From contig NIVC01002214.1 in assembly GCA_002269645.1 (NCBI GenBank), positions 1 through 64,000 of the forward strand: DNA of 64,000 nucleotides, written 5' to 3'. Source of the DNA: Macrostomum lignano (Eukaryota). Under the pieces are notes generated by a model. The model worked only from the letters and a program-made list of their open reading frames with translations. It searched no databases and had not been told where the DNA came from. Below, in pieces: positions 1 to 54,195 of the stretch. Both the position numbers and the translations under genes were made by a program. Numbering within the stretch: position 1 is the first letter of the stretch; the number at the start of each line of letters is the position of its first letter.

Positions 1-277
1 ACTCAGAATATATTTTTCAAGGGAAAAGAGTCGGCGAACAATGAGCTTGAATGTAATGTACTTAGCTATCTTGAAAACCCCCGAGACCAGCTGCAGATTG
101 CAGCACTGGGCAGGCAGTGCACAGAGAAGCCCGCTTTCTGCTGTCAGTGTTCAAGCACGTGACCGCGCAGAACAGGGGAGCCTACCTGTTCCTAGACTTT
201 CACCCATCAACTCCGATGAGCTGCGAGTGCGGGCCAGAATTTTGCCCAACCAGCGACCCCATCTTGTATTTGCTTAA
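1..277 (+). pseudogene. C-terminus of Polinton packaging (A32-like) ATPase, broken by ~4 single-base indels
   Basis: Stitching three frames gives TQNIFFKGKES..MSLNVMYLAILK-NPRDQLQIAALGRQ..RFLLSVFKHVTAQNRGAYLFLDFHPSTP-DELRVRARILPNQRPHLVFA*, matching the typical Maverick ATPase tail (QN.F..GK.SRT.SLN..Y...KNPRD..QI..L.RQ...YL..D.HP.TPD.LR.R). Confidence 0.75.
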
Positions 278-319
278 GAAAGTGAAGCTTGTTTTTTATC
301 GGCTATTGTTTTCATCGCT

Positions 320-657
320 ATGGAAGTGCTTGATTCACATGCAAGTCTTTTTGCGGTTCTTGCGTCACCTAAATATACCGTGCGCTTCAAGCAGCTGTTG
401 ATAAAAAATTGTCCAAAAGAAGTGCGTTATTTTCTTGTTGAGGCCTGTCATAATCTCTTACAAACAATTTATCGTTTTCGATCGATGAAAAAGCTGTTCT
501 TGCAAAGTCAAAAGAGATAATTCGAAAAATTACTCAGCAGAGAAGAAAGATAGACTTGTTAAAGGCTGGCTTCATCAAAATACTCCCGATTCTGCTTAAG
601 CTGGTCAAGAAAAAGAAGCAAAATGAACAAATTTTCAGAAATGGTTCTGATTTCTAA
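320..657 (+). CDS. Small basic Polinton-type protein, frameshifted near 512
   Basis: MEVLDSHASLF..LLIKNCPKEVRYFLVEACHNLL..; adding one A near 512 continues as KEIIRKITQQRRKIDLLKAGFIKILPILLKL, resembling the small Lys-rich ORF that follows Maverick ATPases. Confidence 0.5.
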
Positions 658-1315
658 AGCAGAGTATGAGATGTTAGTGCAGAATTTGAAGCCAAATGAG
701 ACTAGCACTGACGCTGACTTGAAGCAGGCTCAGAAGAAATGCGATGATATCTTGTATGCCGAGGATTATCCAGAAGATGTGAAAACCGCCATGTATCAAA
801 GTGCAATGCAAAGTTTGCTGGCCAAGCGCAAGCACGCTGGAAAAGAAGGATCACGAAATACTGAAGCCAAGTTGATGAAAATAGAGACACCCCAGATGAA
901 CACCTGGGAAGAGAAGATCAGCAAGTCGGTGCCACAGAAATTCAAAACCAGGGCTCGCAGTCTATGGACGATCCTGTCCACCAATCCAGAGCTGATTGGA
1001 GTTTGTGAAAACGGAGAGGTGGAAATCGCAGGCACGTCAATCCCTTCCTCAAACATACTGGACTTGATTCAGCACGCAGTGAGGGATTCGTCATGTGAGC
1101 GTGAACCAGTTGGGTGGAACGAGTTCATCGATTTGCTGCAGCAGAAAAAGCTTAATGTTCCGCTTTCCGCTATTGGTAAATCAGTTAAGAAGAAAATGGC
1201 AACCAGCAGAGGGGGTGAACTGGAGAAAGAACAGGAGAGTCTAGTCAAGGGGTACGGGAGCAACACAGCCTGGCTGAAACTGCCTGGCAGAAAAGTATAT
1301 AAGAAGGTGGACTGA
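623..1315 (+). CDS. Conserved uncharacterised Polinton/Maverick protein (230 aa)
   Basis: Intact ORF with SVPQKFKTRARSL..GEVEIAGTSIPSSNILDLIQHAVR..PVGWNEFIDLL..NVPLSAIG, a motif series typical of Maverick hypothetical proteins. Confidence 0.7.
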   Translation: MNKFSEMVLISKAEYEMLVQNLKPNETSTDADLKQAQKKCDDILYAEDYPEDVKTAMYQSAMQSLLAKRKHAGKEGSRNTEAKLMKIETPQMNTWEEKISKSVPQKFKTRARSLWTILSTNPELIGVCENGEVEIAGTSIPSSNILDLIQHAVRDSSCEREPVGWNEFIDLLQQKKLNVPLSAIGKSVKKKMATSRGGELEKEQESLVKGYGSNTAWLKLPGRKVYKKVD

Positions 1316-1343: not shown

Positions 1344-1822
1344 ATGAACTACATTGACTTCCAAGGATTCCCGTGCAACAGCACAAGCAAAAACTTTGTT
1401 GTGAAGGAGTTGGCAGTTGTTCAAGTCAGAGCGGGAAGCTACCGAATTGCTCACCATGTGTACGCACCTCCGTATCCATGGGAGAGAGTCTCACCTGACA
1501 TGCGAGTTTGCTACAGACAGCTATCAAAGAGTCTGCACCAGTTTAAGTGGAATGATGGAACCCGTCCGTACATGGAACTGGCGGAAGACATTCTGAGGAT
1601 TGCCAGTGGTCCGATCTGGACAAATGGGGAAAGGAAGTCTATTTTCCTGACTGAGCTGCTTGGTAGACAGGTTTATAACCTAGAAGATTTGGGAGCACCC
1701 TCGACTGAAGATTCAGATACTGGCTGTGCAGTGAGAAATTCGTTGCTGCACTACAGTTGGCTTAAGCCAAAGTTCTGCATCAACTTAAGAAGCGAGCAGT
1801 GTCCGTGGCACACGAGCAGTAA
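1344..1822 (+). CDS. DEDD/RNase H-fold exonuclease-like Polinton protein; true stop probably 1820-1822 after a -1 indel near 1770
   Basis: YIDFQGF..FVVKELA..YAPPYPW..LHQFKWNDG..IWTNGERK..VYNLEDLGAP..CAVRN..WL. The ORF-track extension to 2195 is low-complexity and overlaps TBP. Confidence 0.6.
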
Positions 1823-1824
1823 AG

Positions 1825-2454
1825 TTGGCAGAAGCAGATTTGGTGAAGAAGTTGACGATCGAAATGAGCCCACCAGCTACAGCCCTAAGAGTGAGCAATC
1901 TGGTTGGCGGAGTAGATCTGAGGCTGGATGGTGGCAGGGGCGCTCAGCTACCTCTACGGGAACTGGCTCTCAGCATGGCTCATGTGATCTACCGGCCCGT
2001 CTGGCCCCGGGTGCTCATCAAGCGGATGCGAAGTCCCAGAGTGACTCTGCTACTCTACCCTACTGGGCAACTGAGCATCTGCGGTGCCAAGACCCACGCA
2101 GACGCCAAAAGGGCTGCCCGTCGCTTCGTGGCTATGCTGCATCGGAGAGTGCCAGCTCAACTGCTGCCTCCTCAAGCCATTTGTGTTCGGATTAAAACTA
2201 TTACTGCTCATGGTAAATTTAACTTCTGCAATGCTTTGTCCCTCACAAATCTTGCTGCCTCTGGCATACTGTCTTACGCTGAGTATGAGCCCGAGTCGTT
2301 CTCTGCTCTAATTTATACATTACGTTATTGTAAATGCTTGTTATTTCATACTGGTTCTTTTGTTCTTAGTGGAGCAAAATCTATGAGCATGTTGCGCTTC
2401 GACCTTTCTACGTTACATAGTTTAATCAGCCAGTTTATCACCTATCAAAAATAA
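1825..2454 (+). CDS. TATA-box-binding protein (TBP)-like protein, core domain only; first ATG at 1864
   Basis: Both TBP repeats align: VSNLVGGVDL..LRELAL..IYRP..RMRSPRVTLLLYPTGQLSICGAKTHADAKRAARRF and YAEYEPESFSALIY..CLLFHTGSFVLSGAKS. AATAAA overlaps the stop codon. Confidence 0.92.
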   Translation: MAEADLVKKLTIEMSPPATALRVSNLVGGVDLRLDGGRGAQLPLRELALSMAHVIYRPVWPRVLIKRMRSPRVTLLLYPTGQLSICGAKTHADAKRAARRFVAMLHRRVPAQLLPPQAICVRIKTITAHGKFNFCNALSLTNLAASGILSYAEYEPESFSALIYTLRYCKCLLFHTGSFVLSGAKSMSMLRFDLSTLHSLISQFITYQK

Positions 2455-3185
2455 ACAAAAAGTGTGTTCCGTTTGTTCTTGAATGTTTGCGTAAATTCAT
2501 TACGGAAAACCGCATCTTTAAATTATTTATTTTTATTTTTAAAAAATAAGTTTTAACTAAAAAATTAAAGGTGAAATGAGCATAGAATAATTGAAAACTG
2601 GGAGCTAAAACGCGTAATCAGATCTCTCCCCTCACAAAAACAGAAAAAGGGCATAGAACCCATTCCAAAAAGGTTCTGCCAAAAGCGAAATTGCTTAGAT
2701 TGATACACGTGAATGAAGAAATTAATTAATCAAACTCGACTGACACTCATACATGTAACTGGACCGCAAAATTACAAGATAGAGGCAAGAAATTTCAACA
2801 AAAGCAATGCAAAGAAATGTTTTAGCATCATGTTAAAAAATTAATAAATGAACATAAAACTCAGCAATAAAAATTTCAATACATTAAATTTACTGACTTT
2901 GCAATTTAATATTACGAGTAGAAATCGTGCAGTTACAAGGTACTGAAATAAAATTACTAATAAATTAATAGCTAGCATTAAGACTTCAGACAAAAAGTTC
3001 AAAAAGACACTAAAATTACGGTGAAACAGGGGAGGCAAATTGCTGCAACTTCTTCTATCTGAGATAGCAAAATTGAGACAGCATATAATTTAAACGGATA
3101 AAGGCGAGTATATGTTTGAAGAAACCAAAGACTAAATATTCAGAATAAAATGTGTAGAGGCCGTGTGATAAAAAGTTATACTCAG

Positions 3186-6100
3186 TCACTTATTAAATTC
3201 GTAGTCTTCTTCCCGTCGCCGCTTTCGGGAGGCTGTAGCATTCACGTGCTGTTGCAGCTGCGACGACTCCGGATGAAGAAGTTGAAAATGGCCAAACGGG
3301 AGACTGTAGTTCGGTGCCAGCCAAGCGCGCTTGTCCTCCCAAATGCTTAAGGCACACTTTCGCTGCTGCAGCGTGAATAGCCTGTGTTGGATGCTAGCGA
3401 TCCTGTGGATGATGACGGACATGCTACTCAGATCATTGAAGACTCTCAAGTAATCACTATGCGCAATCTCCTTCTTGACAACACATCCTTGAATGCCTTT
3501 GGCTTTTTTCTTTTCAGCAGTTGCAGTGCTAGCGAGAAAGGAATACAGCTTTGGTCTCAAAAGCAACCACTCGAGATAGCGAGCTCCAGCTCCTTCGTCC
3601 TTGATGCAACCGAGGCGAGCTTTCAATTCATTTGAGAACAGCGGGTGCTCAGGTGAATAGTTGGAAGTGTCAAGGAGTTTCTTTGCTTTTAGCAGTGGAA
3701 GAACTTCCGACTGCACATCCATATTCTGAATGCAAAGAAAGAGCGAGTCGGTGTCTCCACCACAGAGCCGAACACGGGCACCCTCTTGCTCAAGCCAAGG
3801 CTTCAATTTGTCGTAGAATAACTCGTACATGATTAGCTTCGAATAGTCAAGAACACACTGGCCAATAAAAATCGGACGATCAAGCTTGACCTTAGTCTTC
3901 TGGAATTCAATTATGCTCAGTGAGTCGGTAATTATGATAAAGTTCTTAATGGATGGTTTTGAAGCCAGCACCTTTGCTTTTGCAGTGTTGGTGCAAATCC
4001 GAATGTCACGTCGCTTACGCACGTTTTCCATTGTTTTTCCGAAGAGCGCATTGTTTTTTAGTTTGTAGTAGTCTTTCTCGAAGCTGTTTGTCGCAGCAGC
4101 TCTTTTCACGCTGTTCATGTTAACATAGTCAGCAAATATCGGCTCCTGTTTGTACTCAATCATTCGATTAATTCGTTTGATTTTCATTCCATGGCTCAAG
4201 TAGAATGCCAAGATAGCCGAATGAAGCACATAACTCTGCTTGTCATGGCAGGTGAGCAGAAGTTTTTCTGCCGAACGATAGGCTGCTTTGTCTCCAGTAA
4301 TCTGCCTCCAAAGCTGTTGCATGTAGGCAGGAAATTCTTTGAATTTTGGTGCTTCTTTTTCTGGTGCAAAAGGCAAATCTTCAGTGGTGGAATGTATCTC
4401 TGCTGGATATAGAAGATCGACATCGAGCAGATAAGCAATTGGATCTGAGATTTTGAGCCCTCGGATACGATCCTCGGTCCACAGCTGTAGCTCATCTTCG
4501 GAAAGCCAGCGAAATCCATTTGCAGGTAAGTTCATGGTAAGAGCTTGACCGTAAAGGTTGTTAGCATCTACTGCTAGAAGCTCGGTAGGAACAGCTTGAT
4601 CAGCGCCCTCGTCGTGACAGTCATCATCATCATCATCATTGTCATTGCAGATAGTCTGATTGTCAGCTGCTTCCAAATTTTTTCTAATATCTGGAGAGTT
4701 GGCTGACACTCTGTGTATGTTCACAAATGACATGCCACCGCGAATACCGCGCTCGAATGTTGCATACATTTGCGAATCCGTAATCAGCTCGATTCTGGAT
4801 TTGAGAGACTTCAGTGCTGAAGCAAAAGATAATCCCGGGGTTGAAACGAAATGCACCGGATCAAGGCCATCATCACGAAGGCTGAGCTTGCGAAAATTTT
4901 CAAAGACATCGGCGAGCTGCCGAATGTCAAGCTCAAGGTAGCATAGCATGTACTCTTTCAGCGTTTTAACTTGGAATTCATGCCATGCTTTCTGTGCATG
5001 CCTGTAATCCTCATCACTGCAGTGGCTTTTAGTCAGAACGTTGTAGAATTGTTCTTTACTTGGCAGCTCGGTATCCTCAAGGACATTTGAATTAGTTAAG
5101 TAGTCGTACGGAAAAGTGCATTTTCTGAATAAAACTTCTGGAGACAACAGTGGAAACTTACTTTTTAGCAGGCTAGTGATGGTGCACTCTTCTTCTGGCA
5201 GGTTCTTGATCAGCTGAGCCAAGCTGGCGTTGAGAAATTGGTTAGAATCAATGAATTGAATGGTAAAGAACAATGGCTTAGTCTTTCCTCCCCTCTCGTA
5301 CTCATCGATTTTGAAGTCAACTTTCATTGAAACAAACTGCTCAGGATTCTGTGGAATAACCGAAATCCTCCATCCATCCATGAGATCCAAAGCCGTTGAC
5401 ATAATGAGATGAAGGTCATAGCCTTTTAGATTGTGGAAAACCACAGGAAGAAAGCGCCTTTTTAGACGAGCCTGCATGTTGCACTGAGCACAGGCTGCAC
5501 CTCGGAATTCGCCACTGAGGTGATCATGATCCCAGTGCTTTCCGCTTTCACTATCAAAGCCGCTTCCGCAGTAGTGACACGATATAGCATCGCGGAAGCG
5601 TTGCTTTGCAGCCTCCGTTCTAATAGCCGTCTGATGACTGAACTCCGTGTTCCAGCCATAAACCTCTCGAGCTAGCTGTTCAAGGGACTGCAAGAAGTCA
5701 GAAACACACTTTTTCGGATTTTCACTCACAAATATGTTAACATCATTGTCGACTCCTATAGGTGATAACCCTGTGAGGCCTGCTCGGTGCACCACCAAGT
5801 AACCAGCAGCAACGGCAACATGCTCTGTCAGCTTTACAGTGCTCGAACCAGCTTCAGTCTGCTGCCCTGTGTGAGGTGCATTCAATGCCTCGAAGTCGGC
5901 GTACACAATGAATGGTGGGCTGATTGTCTTTTCCCACGCCGTAAACCGAAGTACATTGTGATCTTCATCCGGAAGTTCTTCCTGAACAAAAATCCCACCA
6001 GGCTCACAGACATCTTCACAGTGCTCATCGAACGCCTTGCTAGTGTGAAATGACAGCAGACATCGCTCACACCACTTTCGCTGGTACAGGTGGGCTTTAC

Positions 6101-7531
6101 TGTTCAACAATCTGTTGATGTTCGAGACAGCACACCAATGACCACCAGCTGAGTTCTCGTTCGTGGATGGTGGCAGAAACATCAGCAGGACAACTGTTCG
6201 TCCTCTCATGGTAGCTGCGCTTGGCTGTCGGAGGACTTCAGCAGCTTCATTCTCCCAGGTGAAAACAGTGAAGCAAAGGGTTGGATTTAATTCCTCGACA
6301 GCAGACAGATCGTACAAATTGATCGGCAGACTCAGTCCCGTAATGTTAATCTCATCTAGCCATTCGGTGTACGAGGATTCTCGTTGAGCTGACTTCTTAA
6401 TACGGCAGTGATCTTTGTGAAGAAAGGCAAGGCACGCGTAAACAAAGCAATTTTCACCGCTGCTAGGAGGAGAAATGACGGCCTTCTTTTGAAAAAGCGC
6501 AGTCGGCAAACTAAACCCAGCCGCATGCCCCGAATAGTAGGGAGTTCGAACAGCGAGGGCAGAGCAAAGGTCGAAGAAATTTATTTTGTCAATGGCCCAT
6601 CCACTGCCATTAGCGTTGTACACGTCTACTCTCTGCTCTAACTCTGCAAATTGCTGCCTCCACCAGTCATCAAATTCCTGCACATCAACCAGCATACAAA
6701 GATTTGTACTCATCCATTTGTTTTCAACATTGACTGCTTCTGCTGCCTGCACCCGAATCATGCGCACGTTTAGCTTAATTTGTGCTCTTAGCGAACAGTT
6801 GTCAAAGGAGTCAAGACGAACTTCGAGATACTGCAGAACCGCATGTTTGACCAGGTCTAGAAACTCGAATGGATCAATGTCAGCTGTTGGGGCGAAGCGA
6901 TGAATCTGCAGTACATCATCGTGGGCACTGTTCACCAAGGAGATAACACATGAAGACCCTAAAAATAAAATCGAGAGATAAGATAGTGAAAATCGAGAAA
7001 CATAAACTGAGAGTCTCATGATTGCTTATAAATCCAGCTCAATTAGCTATTCATAATAATCGATGTCTGTATTCAGAATCGAGGAGGGTGTTTTTGGATG
7101 TATACAATCGATATAGGTGTGCAGAGGTGTGCGAAGTCGAGGTGGGGTGTCCAGAGTCGAGGTGTGGTGTCCAGAGTCGAGGTGGGGTGTCCGGAGTCGA
7201 AGAAGGGATGTGCAGAGTCGAGGAGGGGGTGTGCGGAGTCGAGGAGGGGGTGTGCGGAGTCGAGGAGGGGGTGTGAAGAGTCGAGGAGGGGGTGTGCAGA
7301 GTCGAGGACGGGGATGTGCAGAGTCAGGGTTGGTGTACGGACTCGGGGTGGGCGGGTGTTATTACGCATTAATTAAAACTGAATTAGTTACACATTTCGA
7401 GTTGAAGGTTTAAAATTTTTCCACTTCAAATATTGGTAAGAAAATAATTGATTTTTTACATTAACAGAGTGGCAAAACTCACCTGCTCCTTCACCTGCTC
7501 TTCGCCTAGAACATGTTGTAGGATCCTGCAT
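3186..7531 (-). CDS. polB: Protein-primed family B DNA polymerase (Polinton pPolB, endonuclease-VII-insert type); main exon 3186-6958, probable first coding exon 7483-7531
   Basis: 1277-aa ORF: ExoI IVYADFEAL, ExoII FHNLKGYD, motif A DANNLYG, motif B KLKNNALFGK, motif C GGDTDS, KKKAKGI; Zn/HNH insert CHYC..DHDHLSGEFRGAACAQCN; N-terminal GSGW and LPTALFQKKAVI..NCFVYA. The 5' end of the ORF reads like an acceptor (tttttAG at 6960-6959); a GTGAGT donor at 7482 gives in-frame MQDPTTCSRRRAGEGA|GSSCV. Confidence 0.95.
7100..7330. repeat. G-rich 20-21 bp minisatellite (gtgcagagtcgaggagggggt), ~10 copies, in the putative polB intron
   Basis: Directly visible tandem units. Confidence 0.9.
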
Positions 7532-8293: not shown

Positions 8294-9322
8294 TTAAGAG
8301 TTACTCAAGCGAATACGGATCCCCCCTCCAAAGTCAATTGAGTACTCGCCCACAACGCTACTCGGTAGGACGAATTGAAGGCAAACTGACGGTGCAGCCA
8401 TCGGTTCAGCGGCTTGGACTCCTGCTGATTGTTGAACCACCGGTGGGGTAGCATGAGGTTCGACTCCTGCTGATTGTTGAACCACCGGTGGGGTAGCATG
8501 AGGTTCGACTCCTGCTGATTGTGGAAACTCTGGTACCACCGGTGGGGTAGCATGAGGTTCGAAATCTCGTAGGAGATCAGACAGGCTGGCATCCGCCATC
8601 ATTCCAGCCATATTTTTTCCAGCGACTGGAACAGCCCTGTGCGGTGGCTGCTGCTCGACCGTGGCTTTTTCGTTCGTCTCCTCCGGCTCCAACTCGTGCT
8701 CCTCAAAGAAAGCCGTGTCCAATTCTGGCGGAGCAACAAAATCAGCGGCAGCAGCATCATCGTCATGGCGATTTACCGGTGTCTGAAGACTGAGAGCACC
8801 AGCCGCTGGAACGTCAACGCTGGCAGCTTGATGGTCGATGCCAGCAGGTCCAGGAGCAGCAGCTGGATGGTCGACGCTGGCAGGTCCAGGAAGGCTGGCA
8901 ACATCAGCTGGATGCTGATCTGCAGCAGCAAGTGCAACGGAAATCAAATCAAAAGTACATGTAGTTGAAATTATTGCAGATTGATTTCGCACACCTTGAA
9001 TCGTCTGGCTCAGGGTGCTGACCGGGGCTCGATGACGCTCGATCATGTTGAGTTGCTCCTGGCGGTGGGCGGCCTCCAGTACAGTAAAGCGGGCTCGTTC
9101 GATGCTATCAGGCGAGCTCCAATTAATGATGGTGTGATTTTTATGGGCCCGAACTTGGCGGCGCACATTGAACAGCTCAGTTGTCTGGCACTCGTGGCAA
9201 AGCAACCAGCGACTTATAATGCAGCTGTCTTTTTTGTTATGGAGCTTTAACCCACCGAGCTCACATGAATTGCAGCTGATGCACACCTCGTGCACGTAGG
9301 ATGGACACCGAGATTTATTCAT
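8294..9322 (-). CDS. Orphan Polinton ORF (342 aa): Cys/His-rich N-terminus, Ala/Pro-rich middle, three 15-aa repeats
   Basis: Open 1029-nt ORF; CISCNSC and CHEC..H motifs; (EPHATPPVVQQSAGV)x3; TATATAA on - strand at 9399-9405. Confidence 0.75.
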   Translation of the reverse strand: MNKSRCPSYVHEVCISCNSCELGGLKLHNKKDSCIISRWLLCHECQTTELFNVRRQVRAHKNHTIINWSSPDSIERARFTVLEAAHRQEQLNMIERHRAPVSTLSQTIQGVRNQSAIISTTCTFDLISVALAAADQHPADVASLPGPASVDHPAAAPGPAGIDHQAASVDVPAAGALSLQTPVNRHDDDAAAADFVAPPELDTAFFEEHELEPEETNEKATVEQQPPHRAVPVAGKNMAGMMADASLSDLLRDFEPHATPPVVPEFPQSAGVEPHATPPVVQQSAGVEPHATPPVVQQSAGVQAAEPMAAPSVCLQFVLPSSVVGEYSIDFGGGIRIRLSNS

Positions 9323-9398: not shown

Positions 9399-9405
9399 TT
9401 ATATA
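9399..9405 (-). promoter_or_regulatory. Candidate TATA box for the 342-aa ORF
   Basis: TATATAA ~77-83 nt upstream of the ATG at 9322. Confidence 0.4.
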
Positions 9406-10404
9406 CCCACTTCAACCAAATCTGTGTTAATAAAAACATAGCCGCTATGTTTTCAGCTTTGCTATGTTTACAGTCAGCCACCCAATGTCCAATGATTTCA
9501 TCAGCGCATCCAGGTATTGAGCCCTTGTTAAATTCCCGCACGCCCCGCTAAATTCTTTTGAATACGCCGCCAACTTTACCCCACCCAGTCGAGGGTGGCA
9601 ATAAAACTGATAACTGAGCACTCTCTCCTTTCAGCAACAAAGCCGCCGCCGCCGCCAGCTCCCAGACAGCGGGAGAGAGAGAGGCTTGGCTACCACTATT
9701 TTTGTTTACAGAAGTTTGTTATTACCGATAAAATTATATAATAAAGTATTAGTATAATACTGAATACAATAAAATACCGCTGATATTTGCCAATCGTTCA
9801 ACACAATTTCTAGAGATTCCCCTAGCTCGCCTCTGTGCATACTTGCGGATTCCCCCATGAGGTGCCTATGTACTCTCATTAGGAGTCTACGGAATTCCCA
9901 TGGCTTTGCCTGCGGCAGAGTTGAGCTATGCAAACACATAGGCGCCCTTCTGATCCGGGCCCACGGAATTTCCGTGGCTTTCCCTGCGGCAGAGTTGTGT
10001 TATCCTCTACTACTCCGGCGGAATGGGTAGTAACGCCTCTCGCCGGTTGTGCGACAATGTCGCTTATAGTGCGCCAGGGTGCACACAGCAAAAAAATAGA
10101 CGTGACACTATGAGCACTCGGAGGGACATCTTCCGATTCTGGGCACCCCTTGCTTCAAACGGGAATCGAACTTTCCTCCTCCGATTCCTCCCAGTCCAGC
10201 TCCAGAGAATGCCTTCTGCTGAGCAGACCACAGGGAAAGATCCGTCGTCAATCGAGGAGGCTGCTGATCCACCGGGCTCTCCCTGTCGATTAGATCGGTG
10301 TACACTGGTCTTCTCACACACTTTTTTACCCTGTAGCAATCAACACGGAGCCAACAAAGAATGGAGTACAATTTTTTAATAAACTACATGTAGCTCCTGA
10401 CCTC

Positions 10405-17687: not shown

Positions 17688-18483
17688 ATGCTGAAGCTGC
17701 TCATTGTCGCCTGCGCCCTCGGCCTGGCCTCGGCCATGCCCGACCCGTACGTCCTGTACGGTAGGACCGCCAGTCAGGGCCAGTTCCCGTTCGCCGCGTG
17801 GCTCGGTTCCTGCTCCGCCTCCATCCTGGACAGCCGCACCGTCCTCACCGCCGGTCACTGCGTGTGCCGCTCCAAGCCGACCTCCGTTCTGTTCGGCGCC
17901 GTTCAGGGCAACAACCCGGAGTCCGGCTCCCGGAGGTACAGCCTGGACACCAGCCGGCAGGTCATTCATCCACGCTACACTAGCTGCGGCACCATTGGCA
18001 AGTGAGTATTCCACACAGACGCTGTTTTGCTGGTTAGTTCTGCCGCTTTAGGCGTTATCACTTGATAAAAACTCATTGGCCAAAATACCACTGACCCACA
18101 GGGATGACATCGCCATCCTGAAGACCACCACGGCAATCTCCTTCACCTCCGTCATCGGCGCAATCACTTTGCACACATCCGCCACCTCTGTCGGCCAGAG
18201 CATCACCATCGCTGGCTACGGCCAAGACGAGAACAGGCGGTCCGGCGTGCTGAAGTACGCGACCAGCACCGTGGAGAGCTGCAGGCGCTTCATCGGCGCC
18301 GTCTGCCAGTCGATGAGCCCGAACAGCCCGTACTACGGTGACAGCGGTGGCCCGCTGTTCATCACCGTGAGCGGCCAGCCCCGCCAGGTCGGTGTCGTGT
18401 CCGGCGGTGACTTCAGCAACAACCAGGCCATCTACGGCAACGTGTACGACAATCTGAGCTTCATCCGCGGGCTCATGGGCTGA
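17688..18483 (+). CDS. Secreted S1A (trypsin/chymotrypsin-family) serine protease, copy 1; exons 17688-18001, 18102-18483
   Basis: Signal peptide MLKLLIVACALGLASA; triad TAGHC / DDIAIL / GDSGGP; GTGAGT..CAG intron restores frame; AATAAA at ~18517. Confidence 0.95.
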
Positions 18484-21899: not shown

Positions 21900-22937
21900 C
21901 AGACCATAGGAGACTTTTGCCCATCTTATGAGACGATTCGCCGCTGGGCTATTGCCATTCGCAACGGCAAAGAAGACAGTTGACGACCAACGAGTGCTCG
22001 GACTGAAAGCCTAGTGAGTCAGGTGGAGGCAGCCGTGCTGCAGGACCGGAGACTGACAACCAAGCAGCTGGCTGATGCCATAGGGGTGTCCCACGACTCA
22101 GTCCACAAGATCCTGACCGAGGACCTTGGGATGCGCAAGGTCTGTGCCAAGTGGGTGCCGCATCTGCTCACTGACGATCAGCGGGCTCGGCGGGTCGCCA
22201 TGTGCGCATCCAACCTGCAGCGGTGTCGGCGGGAGGGCATGGCGTTCCTGCAAAGGATCGTTGCCTGCGACGAAACCTGGGCGCATTCTTGGGAGGCGGA
22301 GTTGAAGCGGCAGAGTTCCACATGATGCAGGCCAGGTTCTCCGCGACATCAAAAGGCCATCCGGAGCATCGGCCAGCTGAAGGTCATGCACGTGACTTTC
22401 TTCGATCGGGAGGGTCTGTTGTTCGATCAGCCTGTGCCAGTGGGGCAGACGGTCAATGGTGATTTCTACCTGTCGATTCTGGTGAAAGTTCGGCGTGCCA
22501 TTCGGGACAAAAGGCCTGCACTTCACGCGGCTGGCCAGACTCTGCTTCACGACAACGCAGCCCCACACCGAAAAAGCGTGCTGGCTACGATCGAGTCGTG
22601 GGGGTGGGAAATTCTTACGCATCCGCCTTATTCCCCGGACTTAAGTCCATGCGACTTTTTCCTCTTCCCTCGCATCAAGGAGTCGATGCGGGGCCAGCGT
22701 TTCAGCGCAGAGGAAGACGTGAATCGGGCCTACAAGGCTGGCATTGCCGCCGTGACGAACAATGGCATGACTGCAGGCATTGACGGGCTGGTGCGGCGTT
22801 GGGAGAAATGCATTGAAGCTGAGGGCTCATACTTTGAGTGAATAGATGTTAAGGAAGACATTTGTAACTTTTCATGTTTCTACTGTTTATCGTTCTCAAG
22901 TTATTACAATATACACAGAACTTTTCTGACAACCCTG
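21900..22937 (+). mobile_element. Mariner (DD34D) element, 5'-damaged, one in-frame TGA at 22323-22325
   Basis: WVPHLLT, IVACDETW, LLHDNAAPH, HPPYSPDLSPCDFFLF; 22014-22325 and 22386-22841 are the same frame; mariner-like 3' end cagaacttttctgacaaccct. Confidence 0.93.
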
Positions 22938-23497: not shown

Positions 23498-24276
23498 ATG
23501 CTGAAGCTGATCATTGTCGCCTGCGCCCTCGGCGTGGCCTCGGCTTTGCCCGACCCGTACGTCCTGTACGGCCAGACCGCCGAACAGGGCCAGTTCCCGT
23601 TCGCCGGCTGGCTCGGCTTCTGCTCCGCCTCCATCCTGGACCGCCGCACCGTCCTCACCGCCGGCCACTGCGTGTGCCGCACTCGCCCGACTTCTGTTCT
23701 GTTCGGCGCCGTGCAGGGCAACCGGCCCGAGTCCGGCTCCAAGAGGTACAGCCTGGACACCAGCCGCCAGGTCATCAACCCGAAGTACACGCAGTGCAAC
23801 ACGGTTGGCAAGTGAGTACAGTTTAGATTCTAGCTTCCAAGAGAGTACCAATTATTGCACTAAATGCCACAAAAATAATCCCAAAACTAATCAGGGACGA
23901 CATCGCCATTGTGAAGACCACCGTTGATATCGAGTTCACCGACTTGATCAAGCCGATCGTTCTGTACGAAGCCGCCACCTCTGTCGGCCAGAGCGTCACC
24001 ATTGCTGGCTACGGCCAGGACGAGAACAGGCGGTCCGGCGTGCTGAAGTACGCGACCAGCACCGTGGAGAGCTGCAGGCGCTTCATCGGCGCCGTCTGCC
24101 AGTCGATGAGCCCGAACAGCCCGTACTACGGTGACAGCGGTGGCCCGCTGTTCATCACCGTGAGCGGCCAGCCCCGCCAGGTCGGTGTCGTGTCCGGCGG
24201 TGACTTCAGCAACAACCAGGCCATCTACGGCAACGTGTACGACAATCTGAGCTTCCTGAAGGCCAACTTCGAGTAA
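23498..24276 (+). CDS. Secreted S1A serine protease, copy 2; exons 23498-23811, 23895-24276
   Basis: Paralogue of copy 1 with same intron position, intact triad, TATA-like tatata at ~23444 and AATAAA at ~24317. Confidence 0.95.
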
Positions 24277-27233: not shown

Positions 27234-37046
<9,813 letters not shown>

Positions 37047-53934: not shown

Positions 53935-54195
53935 CAAGGACGACTTAAGTAGTAGAAGGACGGGAAACCTCGTTTCTTAGAAAATTTCAGAAGGCAGGTT
54001 TTCCCTTAAAAATACGCTACGGAGATAGGAAGTTTTCATTTTTCCAGCACAAAAATCAAAAGCAATAACAATTTTTGTGCTGAAAAATGAAAACTTCCTA
54101 TCTCCGTACTCCGTAGTGTATTTTTTCGGGAAAACTTGCCTTCTAAAATTTTCTAAGAAACGAGGTTTCCCGTCCTTCTACTTAAGTCATCCTTG
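53935..54195. mobile_element. MITE family A, internally deleted copy forming a near-perfect hairpin
   Basis: CAAGGA..TCCTTG termini, ~120-bp arms homologous to 34736-35390, exact 8-bp TSD CACTGGAG. Confidence 0.9.

Follow-up and report, generated by a model that had tools for sequence, protein, structure and literature searches.

A divergent TATA-binding protein and a shared TAAGAA box suggest a late-gene switch in Polinton elements of Macrostomum lignano

Gene content of the element

The window, meaning the whole stretch of 64,000 nucleotides analysed here (Macrostomum lignano, contig NIVC01002214.1, positions 1 to 64,000), starts inside the gene of an A32-like packaging ATPase, of which the 3' end is present (1..277, + strand). 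The left part of the element is absent because the contig end cuts it off. The ATPase is followed on the + strand by a 112-aa open reading frame (ORF), which is not full length in this copy and is preceded by a CTTAAGAA box containing the ATPase stop codon (273..280, +), a 230-aa ORF without a Pfam match (623..1315, +), a 283-aa ORF (1344..2195, +), and a gene for a TATA-binding protein (TBP; 1864..2454, +). Before the 283-aa ORF lies TATATAAGAA (1296..1305, +), in which a canonical TATA and a TAAGAA core overlap; TATTTAAGAA takes its place in other subfamilies. As a sequence-only reading of this DNA had described, the TBP gene shares its strand with the 230-aa and 283-aa ORFs and is convergent with the gene for a protein-primed DNA polymerase B of 1277 aa (pPolB; 3186..7019, −), which carries an endonuclease-VII-like insert and whose homologues match PF03175. 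Beyond pPolB, the ORF list and Pfam analysis give a 342-aa ORF with a Cys-rich N-terminus and an acidic/Pro-rich middle (8294..9322, −), which is a candidate early regulator. The TATATAA noted in the same reading is present (9399..9405, −), about 80 nt before the 342-aa ORF, and is more likely a host-TBP site than a target of the element TBP. Comparison of copies places the right terminal inverted repeat (TIR) of ~155 bp, ending in ...ACTACT, at 9860..10014, and the TBP gene lies inside the TIRs, not outside them.

The 283-aa ORF overlaps the first 332 nt of the TBP gene (window 1864-2195), which the sequence-only reading had missed. The overlapping part is its Ser/Arg-rich tail; the overlap is present in both element families described below (A and B), and the tail is poorly conserved between them. 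The N-terminal ~165 aa of this ORF resemble ~170-aa arthropod hypothetical proteins and, weakly and as a lead only, Maelstrom (0.88); this part may have a DnaQ-like fold. Inside the ORF, a CTTAAGAA box lies 80 nt before the TBP ATG (1784..1791, +) and is found in 8/8 family-A copies compared. At the other end of the TBP gene, an AATAAA overlaps the stop codon (2450..2455, +); AATAAA occurs within -4 to +26 nt of the TBP stop in 6/6 family-A copies, and several more are inside the gene block. Tandem repeats are found before pPolB (window 7130-7330, 21-nt units) and inside the 342-aa ORF (window 8414-8557, 45-nt units), with copy numbers that differ between copies.

The host part of the window contains two tandem genes that, by their motifs, are presumably trypsin-like proteases (17688-18398 and 23498-24191), a fragment that is presumably a mariner-like transposase on the same grounds (22386-22841), and related inverted-repeat (MITE-like) elements (34746-35355 and 53951-54182).

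In other copies of the element, the gene order is a PC4-like gene, an rve integrase with chromodomain, 275-aa, 129-aa and 427-aa ORFs, a protease, the ATPase, the 112-aa, 230-aa and 283-aa ORFs and TBP, followed by pPolB in convergent orientation and the 342-aa ORF. One copy measures 15,960 bp from TIR to TIR, each TIR being ~155 bp long with AGTAGTAG at the end, and has a perfect 6-bp duplication at its flanks; among the three copies with both ends read, the target-site duplication is perfect in C1297, matches at 5/6 bases in C1113, and is missing in C211. Mavericks are defined by terminal inverted repeats with (AGT)2//(ACT)2 ends in the accessible text of PMC8097293, and the AGTAGTAG ends of the ~155-bp TIRs in the copies inspected agree with this definition. 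The integrase matches the rve family in Pfam (E 2e-12). Family-A polymerases match PF03175; the window PolB gives no direct match, and its catalytic part shows ~47% identity to that of a family-B PolB that has one. The matches of the protease to Peptidase_C5 (E 0.003) and of the ATPase to Pox_A32 (E 0.011, with P-loop) are both weak and below the curated cut-offs, and a Pox_A32 family search across the genome gave no match. The 427-aa and 275-aa ORFs occupy the expected capsid positions. Capsid_N is matched by 1/19 homologues (E 0.03), a PDB profile search for a capsid fold gave no match, and a single-sequence capsid model has a pLDDT of 30; the names "major" and "minor" capsid rest on position and size only. 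The gene set (pPolB, rve integrase, adenain-like protease, A32-like ATPase), the two capsid-position ORFs, the TIRs and the 6-bp duplication are like those of Polintons/Mavericks/adintoviruses, as far as these are described in the available parts of PMC8097293 and PMC8502044.

Both families have a gene for a PC4/Sub1-like ssDNA-binding coactivator adjoining the TIR and preceded by a canonical TATA box. It is seen at L034:9137-9880, which is the left element end and outside the window, and at L053:7791-8432, and its product may have a role in replication or together with TBP. PC4-like ORFs are also found beside pPolB in another element type (L116:8498-9031).

The TBP protein and its relatives

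The open frame of the TBP gene covers 1825-2454, where the codon at 1825 is TTG; the first ATG, at 1864, gives a protein of 196 aa and is the start common to the aligned family-A subfamilies. Pfam finds two TBP repeats in this protein (E 4.8e-26), and a PDB sequence search returns TBPs, with archaeal and yeast TBP as the best solved relatives. The AlphaFold model, built with a 12-row alignment, has a pLDDT of 88.9 and the complete two-repeat strand/helix order. With this model as query, Foldseek gives 44 matches at E<=0.001, and the matches listed are TBP structures; TM(query) to the TBP structures is mostly 0.73-0.81 at 22-27% identity. The element protein thus has the two-repeat saddle fold of the TBP family by Pfam, AlphaFold and Foldseek, and the earlier identification of a TBP core without N-terminal tail is confirmed: the product is a bare 196-aa core. 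The gene was also described as intronless, and it is indeed a single open frame. This property has no diagnostic value, since the same holds for the TBP core of the host. The core of host TFIIB is split over exons.

In the host, canonical TBP and a TRF2-like gene are present at three loci each. BLAST aligns the window protein to host TBP at 28% identity and to the host TRF2-like protein at 26%; family-A TBPs are 26-29% identical to host TBP. The element TBPs have the same fold as host TBP and TRF2 but, besides this low identity, form their own clade. A TRF2/TLF identity was rejected, as the protein is closer to TBP by BLAST, separate in trees, and different in its residues. The divergence from host TBP and the old capture proposed on first reading agree with these data, the latter because of the 26-29% identity and the shared position of the gene in families A and B.

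The element TBPs have a clade of their own (SH-aLRT 95-96) in two trees, which were built with a quick method from 47 of 140 and from 45 chosen representatives and have long branches; in the first tree, this clade unites families A and B with five unnamed relatives (SH-aLRT 96). An AU test does not reject the element clade plus host TBP as one clade (p-AU 0.34), so that the tree is compatible with descent from the TBP lineage of the host. Among 1.84 billion representatives, 8 score below 1e-30, of which 7 belong to this clade or are gene-model chimeras of it and 1 is a plant TBP. In the second tree, the clade is placed, with weak support (86), beside short metagenomic TBPs that have no tail and likewise carry T for N159.

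These metagenomic sequences (P0044, P0046, P0069, P0090, P0116, P0122 and P0186-P0209) represent a large family of tail-less TBPs of 166-217 aa from unnamed metagenome or sequencing-run contigs of up to 25 kb, which is possibly mobile or viral. A metagenome scan reduced 201 pattern matches to 11 loci, and the 6 with ORFs inspected contained no Polinton: these contigs were of cellular or archaeal origin or too short for an assignment. Viral-contig scans and a prokaryote-genome scan found no Polinton TBP, and a scan of a phage collection gave no match other than a halovirus TBP (31%).

Other pPolB genes, which are accompanied by dNK and dUTPase, have a third TBP lineage (F) next to them that is more divergent. 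It comprises 72 matches out of 79 candidates and has a separate long branch in the tree; one of the two members scanned exceeds the Pfam cut-off. Lineage F is found in larger pPolB elements (L122:1242-1859; L133:1513-2070, − strand; L137-L139). In 4/5 frames examined, its TBP region starts right after a splice-acceptor-like TTTCAG/TTTTAG without an ATG (read in the DNA for two frames and implied by translation for two), which makes splicing of lineage-F TBP probable. One copy has TBP and dNK together in a single open frame.

Copies, selection and recombination

A genome search with the element TBP gave at least 151 matches, counting the best 150 of 227 candidates scored. They include at least 10 identical proteins (the window among them), groups at 98% and 75-83% identity, fragments, and, at 37-38%, the members of family B. 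At least a dozen copies of this family are near full length, with the ATPase-to-TBP block arranged as in family A and with pPolB and PC4 placed differently; the TBPs of the two families are 34-39% identical. Element genes are beside TBP at all 42 loci checked with flanks (30 of family A and 12 of family B). The 283-aa ORF accompanies TBP in 30/30 and 12/12 of these loci, and TBP is followed by pPolB in 28/30 family-A loci and by PC4 in 12/12 family-B loci. With this linkage across copies, the gene is not a one-off retrocopy, the alternative raised in the sequence-only reading. It follows that TBP-domain annotations in the genome of this flatworm belong mostly to mobile elements: the host accounts for 6 loci (3 TBP, 3 TRF2-like), which top the 150 scored matches.

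The ratio dN/dS, which the same reading had named as a measure across copies, is 0.06-0.26 in every pair and region with unsaturated dS among seven subfamily copies. Element TBPs are thus under purifying selection. These values contradict the idea of a passenger, a decayed host retrocopy without function. The identity of only 28% to host TBP and the AU test, with its outcome compatible with an origin in the host lineage, would suit such a passenger; yet most near-full-length matches keep open frames, functional residues are invariant across families with TBPs that are 34-39% identical, and the predicted fold is full and confident. We regard a functionless passenger as highly improbable.

Within the TBP gene, identity falls sharply at about +330 to +360 nt in 9/10 pairs compared, even between copies that are 95% identical upstream. 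The subfamilies are therefore mosaics, in which the 3' half of TBP travels with the polymerase side. In the window, about 2195-2225 marks a recurrent recombination breakpoint inside TBP, where the virion block is joined to different polymerase blocks. The position of the gene between the virion block and pPolB, and the joint travel of its 3' half with the polymerase side in recombinants, would also suit a protein that bends DNA outside transcription, when the element is replicated, excised or packaged, and for which the boxes would be recurring structural sites. The boxes described below are strand-specific and lie before start codons rather than at the termini, and a bending protein would not need to keep the TFIIB stirrup; we consider this role quite unlikely.

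Functional residues of the element TBPs

Residues were compared in 13 element rows, using yeast numbering via host TBP. N69, V71, T112, L114, E186, E188, F190 and F207 are kept in 13/13 rows, and F99 (to P), F116 (to Y), T124 (to C), N159 (to T) and P191 (to S/T/N) are changed in 13/13; the fixed changes in element TBPs are at F99, V122, T124, N159 and P191. The TFIIB stirrup (EPExF) is retained, with acidic E186/E188 in 13/13 rows. According to the accessible text of PMC12529657, four phenylalanines kink the DNA, the proline equivalent to P191 makes T the preferred base at TATA position 1, and TFIIB is bound through acidic residues close to E188, which are needed for this binding. In the element TBPs, three of the four kinking positions keep an aromatic residue (F190, F207, and F116 as Y); at the fourth, P has replaced F99, with a neighbouring W in family A. 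Since the four phenylalanines are not all present, the protein is a divergent member of the TBP family and not a canonical TBP. It shares with host TBP the fold, N69/V71/F190/F207 and the stirrup, and differs from it in the absence of the tail and in the fixed changes on the DNA face. A lysine at the V203-equivalent position is invariant, in a register that differs between alignments, and the basic helix of the first repeat is present in family A and absent in family B. Because of this pattern of kept and changed residues, we infer that the element protein resembles a DNA-binding, TFIIB-recruiting TBP with altered specificity.

In the second repeat, conservation is 0.93 for DNA-facing columns, 1.00 for the stirrup and 0.69 for other columns, and the outer surface varies widely between subfamilies. 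The stirrup is thus the best conserved surface, as would be expected of a decoy or dominant-negative protein that binds TFIIB (or Mot1/NC2/TAF1) off DNA and dampens host transcription or defence genes while another factor reads the box; the loss of one kinking phenylalanine and an outer surface that varies as host conflict would have it point the same way. The DNA-facing columns, however, are far above background, unlike host TRF2, which has lost several DNA-kinking aromatics. The surface variability coincides with the recombination breakpoint and needs no arms race, and no other DNA-binding candidate for the box was found. A decoy, which the sequence-only reading had offered as one of two functions, stays a rival that we judge unlikely.

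A TAAGAA box before internal genes

We ranked all 7-mers within 160 nt before the internal genes in an unbiased word search. TTAAGAA ranks first before 7/10 internal genes in two family-A subfamilies (corrected p 7e-8 and 8e-9, two tests that share ancestry). In family B the signal is weaker, with TAAGAA first among 6-mers before 4/7 genes (corrected p 0.07), three genes without a sure start having been left out. The usual form of the box is mostly CTTAAGAA in family A, and often TATAAGAA, otherwise CATAAGAA or CTTAAGAA, in family B. Over seven blocks, TAAGAA occurs 60 times in sense and 2 times in antisense, against about 13 and 8 expected; the blocks are related, so that these counts are not independent. 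The host part of the window contains 17 and 16 occurrences, which is no enrichment. Where it lies within upstream ORFs, TAAGAA occurs in each of the three frames, and it is also found between genes; the T of the box before the putative major capsid gene is kept across CTT/CCT/CAT codons. The distance from box to ATG is 33-147 nt, with 229 nt for the integrase in one copy and 10 nt to the first ATG for the putative minor capsid gene of family B. The protease gene and the 230-aa ORF have no such box; the family-B TBP gene has a plain TATAAAAG upstream instead of a TAAGAA box. Among lineage-F elements, TAAGAA occurs in the 100 nt before 0/14 ORFs printed.

Canonical TATA(T/A)A boxes precede 13/15 TIR-proximal genes examined, and sense TATAAA/TATATA is absent from 2/7 internal blocks. 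The pattern of a variant box at putative late genes and a canonical one at putative early genes is thus seen in the sequence itself. As an unrelated, AT-rich control, a capsid-type element without TBP from the same genome has no strand bias of TAAGAA (6/5 and 0/2), and one of its ORFs has TAAGAA just before the ATG. This element (L113-L114, L110-L111; 34% GC) carries pPolB, an A32 ATPase, an rve integrase and a 490-aa capsid-sized ORF, has TATAAA/AAAA directly before the ATG of several genes, and looks like a Polinton-like virus.

The boxes could also be weak TATA variants read by host TBP/TFIID, with the element TBP as a general booster or stand-in without specificity of its own, for example in cells where host TBP is scarce or inhibitor-bound. 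The frequent TATAAGAA of family B, which host TBP might read, the canonical TATA overlapping the box before the 283-aa ORF, and the retention of the TFIIB stirrup and most DNA-facing residues would all agree with such a booster. Host TBP, though, would disfavour a box without a TATA core, and family-A boxes are mostly CTTAAGAA, which has none. Canonical boxes, moreover, serve the genes close to the TIRs, some internal blocks have almost none of them, and the fixed changes at F99, V122, T124, N159 and P191 point to altered specificity. We therefore hold both the booster and the stand-in to be rather improbable. In TBP-DNA structures, the second TBP repeat reads the 5' half of the box, and the loss of P191 would fit a C at box position 1.

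Discussion

The best explanation of the TBP ORF is that it serves a Polinton/Maverick (adintovirus-like) lineage as a functional accessory gene, with a cellular-type TBP core that was captured long ago and retuned. TBP is absent from the accessory genes listed for animal adintoviruses in section 8 of PMC8502044, as far as its text is available, unlike in the window element. The earlier statement that TBP is not a described Polinton accessory holds for these animal viruses, and fails for related elements, where a figure legend of the same source carries a TBP-like label. This label is on a MELD virus with an adintovirus-like PolB (PMC8502044 Fig. 5 legend; preprint 10.1101/697771); it belongs to a section on non-animal datasets whose accessible text gives no analysis of it, with 0 hits in the one supplement searched. 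The accessible parts of PMC8097293 and PMC8502044 contain no promoter box or early/late scheme for Polintons or adintoviruses, and "TBP" or "TATA" has 0 occurrences in PMC11161782 and 10.64898/2026.06.19.733378. A literature search whose range largely excluded subscription papers, figures and bioRxiv supplements found no analysis of an animal Polinton TBP or promoter box.

Nucleocytoviricota with TBP-like proteins carry their own RNA polymerase, whereas an RNA polymerase gene is absent from the Polinton element. Their TBP-like proteins (Heterosigma akashiwo virus 01, ASFV-like B263R) also have a viral TBP fold by BFVD matches, with TMq 0.5-0.7 and 10-14% identity for the top named matches; cellular TBPs are closer to the element protein (TM about 0.8, 22-27%). 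In beta/gamma-herpesviruses, a vTBP such as KSHV ORF24 reads a variant TATT box at late genes with host Pol II, and early boxes are canonical (PMC12529657; PMC7498053, both in their accessible parts). ORF24 is large and multidomain, works with five partners in a complex of six members, and makes direct contact with Pol II while having no acidic residues that contact TFIIB, as the available text of PMC12529657 describes; the Polinton protein, in contrast, is a bare 196-aa core with the TFIIB stirrup retained and no extra domain. The likeness to the herpesvirus vTBP/TATT system is one of probable working and not of membership, and we claim no likeness beyond the fold.

We propose that late genes are served by an element-specific TBP that recognises the variant box and attracts TFIIB and Pol II of the host, a reading to which we give slightly better than even chances. 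Once the element is freed or derepressed, host TBP would read the canonical TATA near the terminal repeats (PC4 and the 342-aa ORF, in family B also pPolB), and also the hybrid TATATAAGAA box before the 283-aa/TBP pair. The element TBP would then bind CTTAAGAA/(T/A)TAAGAA before the ATPase gene, the putative capsid genes (major and minor), the integrase gene and further internal genes; in family A, the box of its own gene would be a target too. Its conserved acidic stirrup would recruit host TFIIB and Pol II, leading to a late wave of virion genes. The box as a promoter, the binding of the element TBP to it, the TFIIB contact and the timing are all predicted here from sequence. The other function offered at first reading, redirection of Pol II to element promoters, gains support from the box. 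Several observations speak against the proposal: the variable spacing of box and ATG, the internal genes that have no box, the weaker family-B signal with its plain TATAAAAG at TBP, the lack of TAAGAA at the lineage-F ORFs, the proline in place of a kinking phenylalanine, and the missing basic helix in family B.

More broadly, we put forward, tentatively and as the less probable side of the question, that many animal Polintons are true viruses with a minimal transcription switch. Such a switch would consist of one captured TBP and a lineage-specific TATA variant (CTTAAGAA here) that co-evolve, would have been acquired at least twice (A/B and F, in one genome), and would extend to the large unnamed family of tail-less metagenomic TBPs.

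Polinton particles have not been observed, according to the accessible text of PMC8097293, and the question addressed here is the timing of capsid-gene expression and the viral behaviour of Polintons. The divergent TBP and the shared box at most internal genes suggest that Polintons may have their own late-gene switch, as some herpesviruses do. If true, a dedicated TBP with a matching box would be a first regulatory programme for Polintons, and a natural altered-specificity TBP that keeps the TFIIB contact, unlike the herpesvirus mimic. It would help to explain how DNA is recognised by TBP and why TBP has been captured by viruses time and again, and would represent the smallest known route to private viral promoters using host TFIIB and Pol II.
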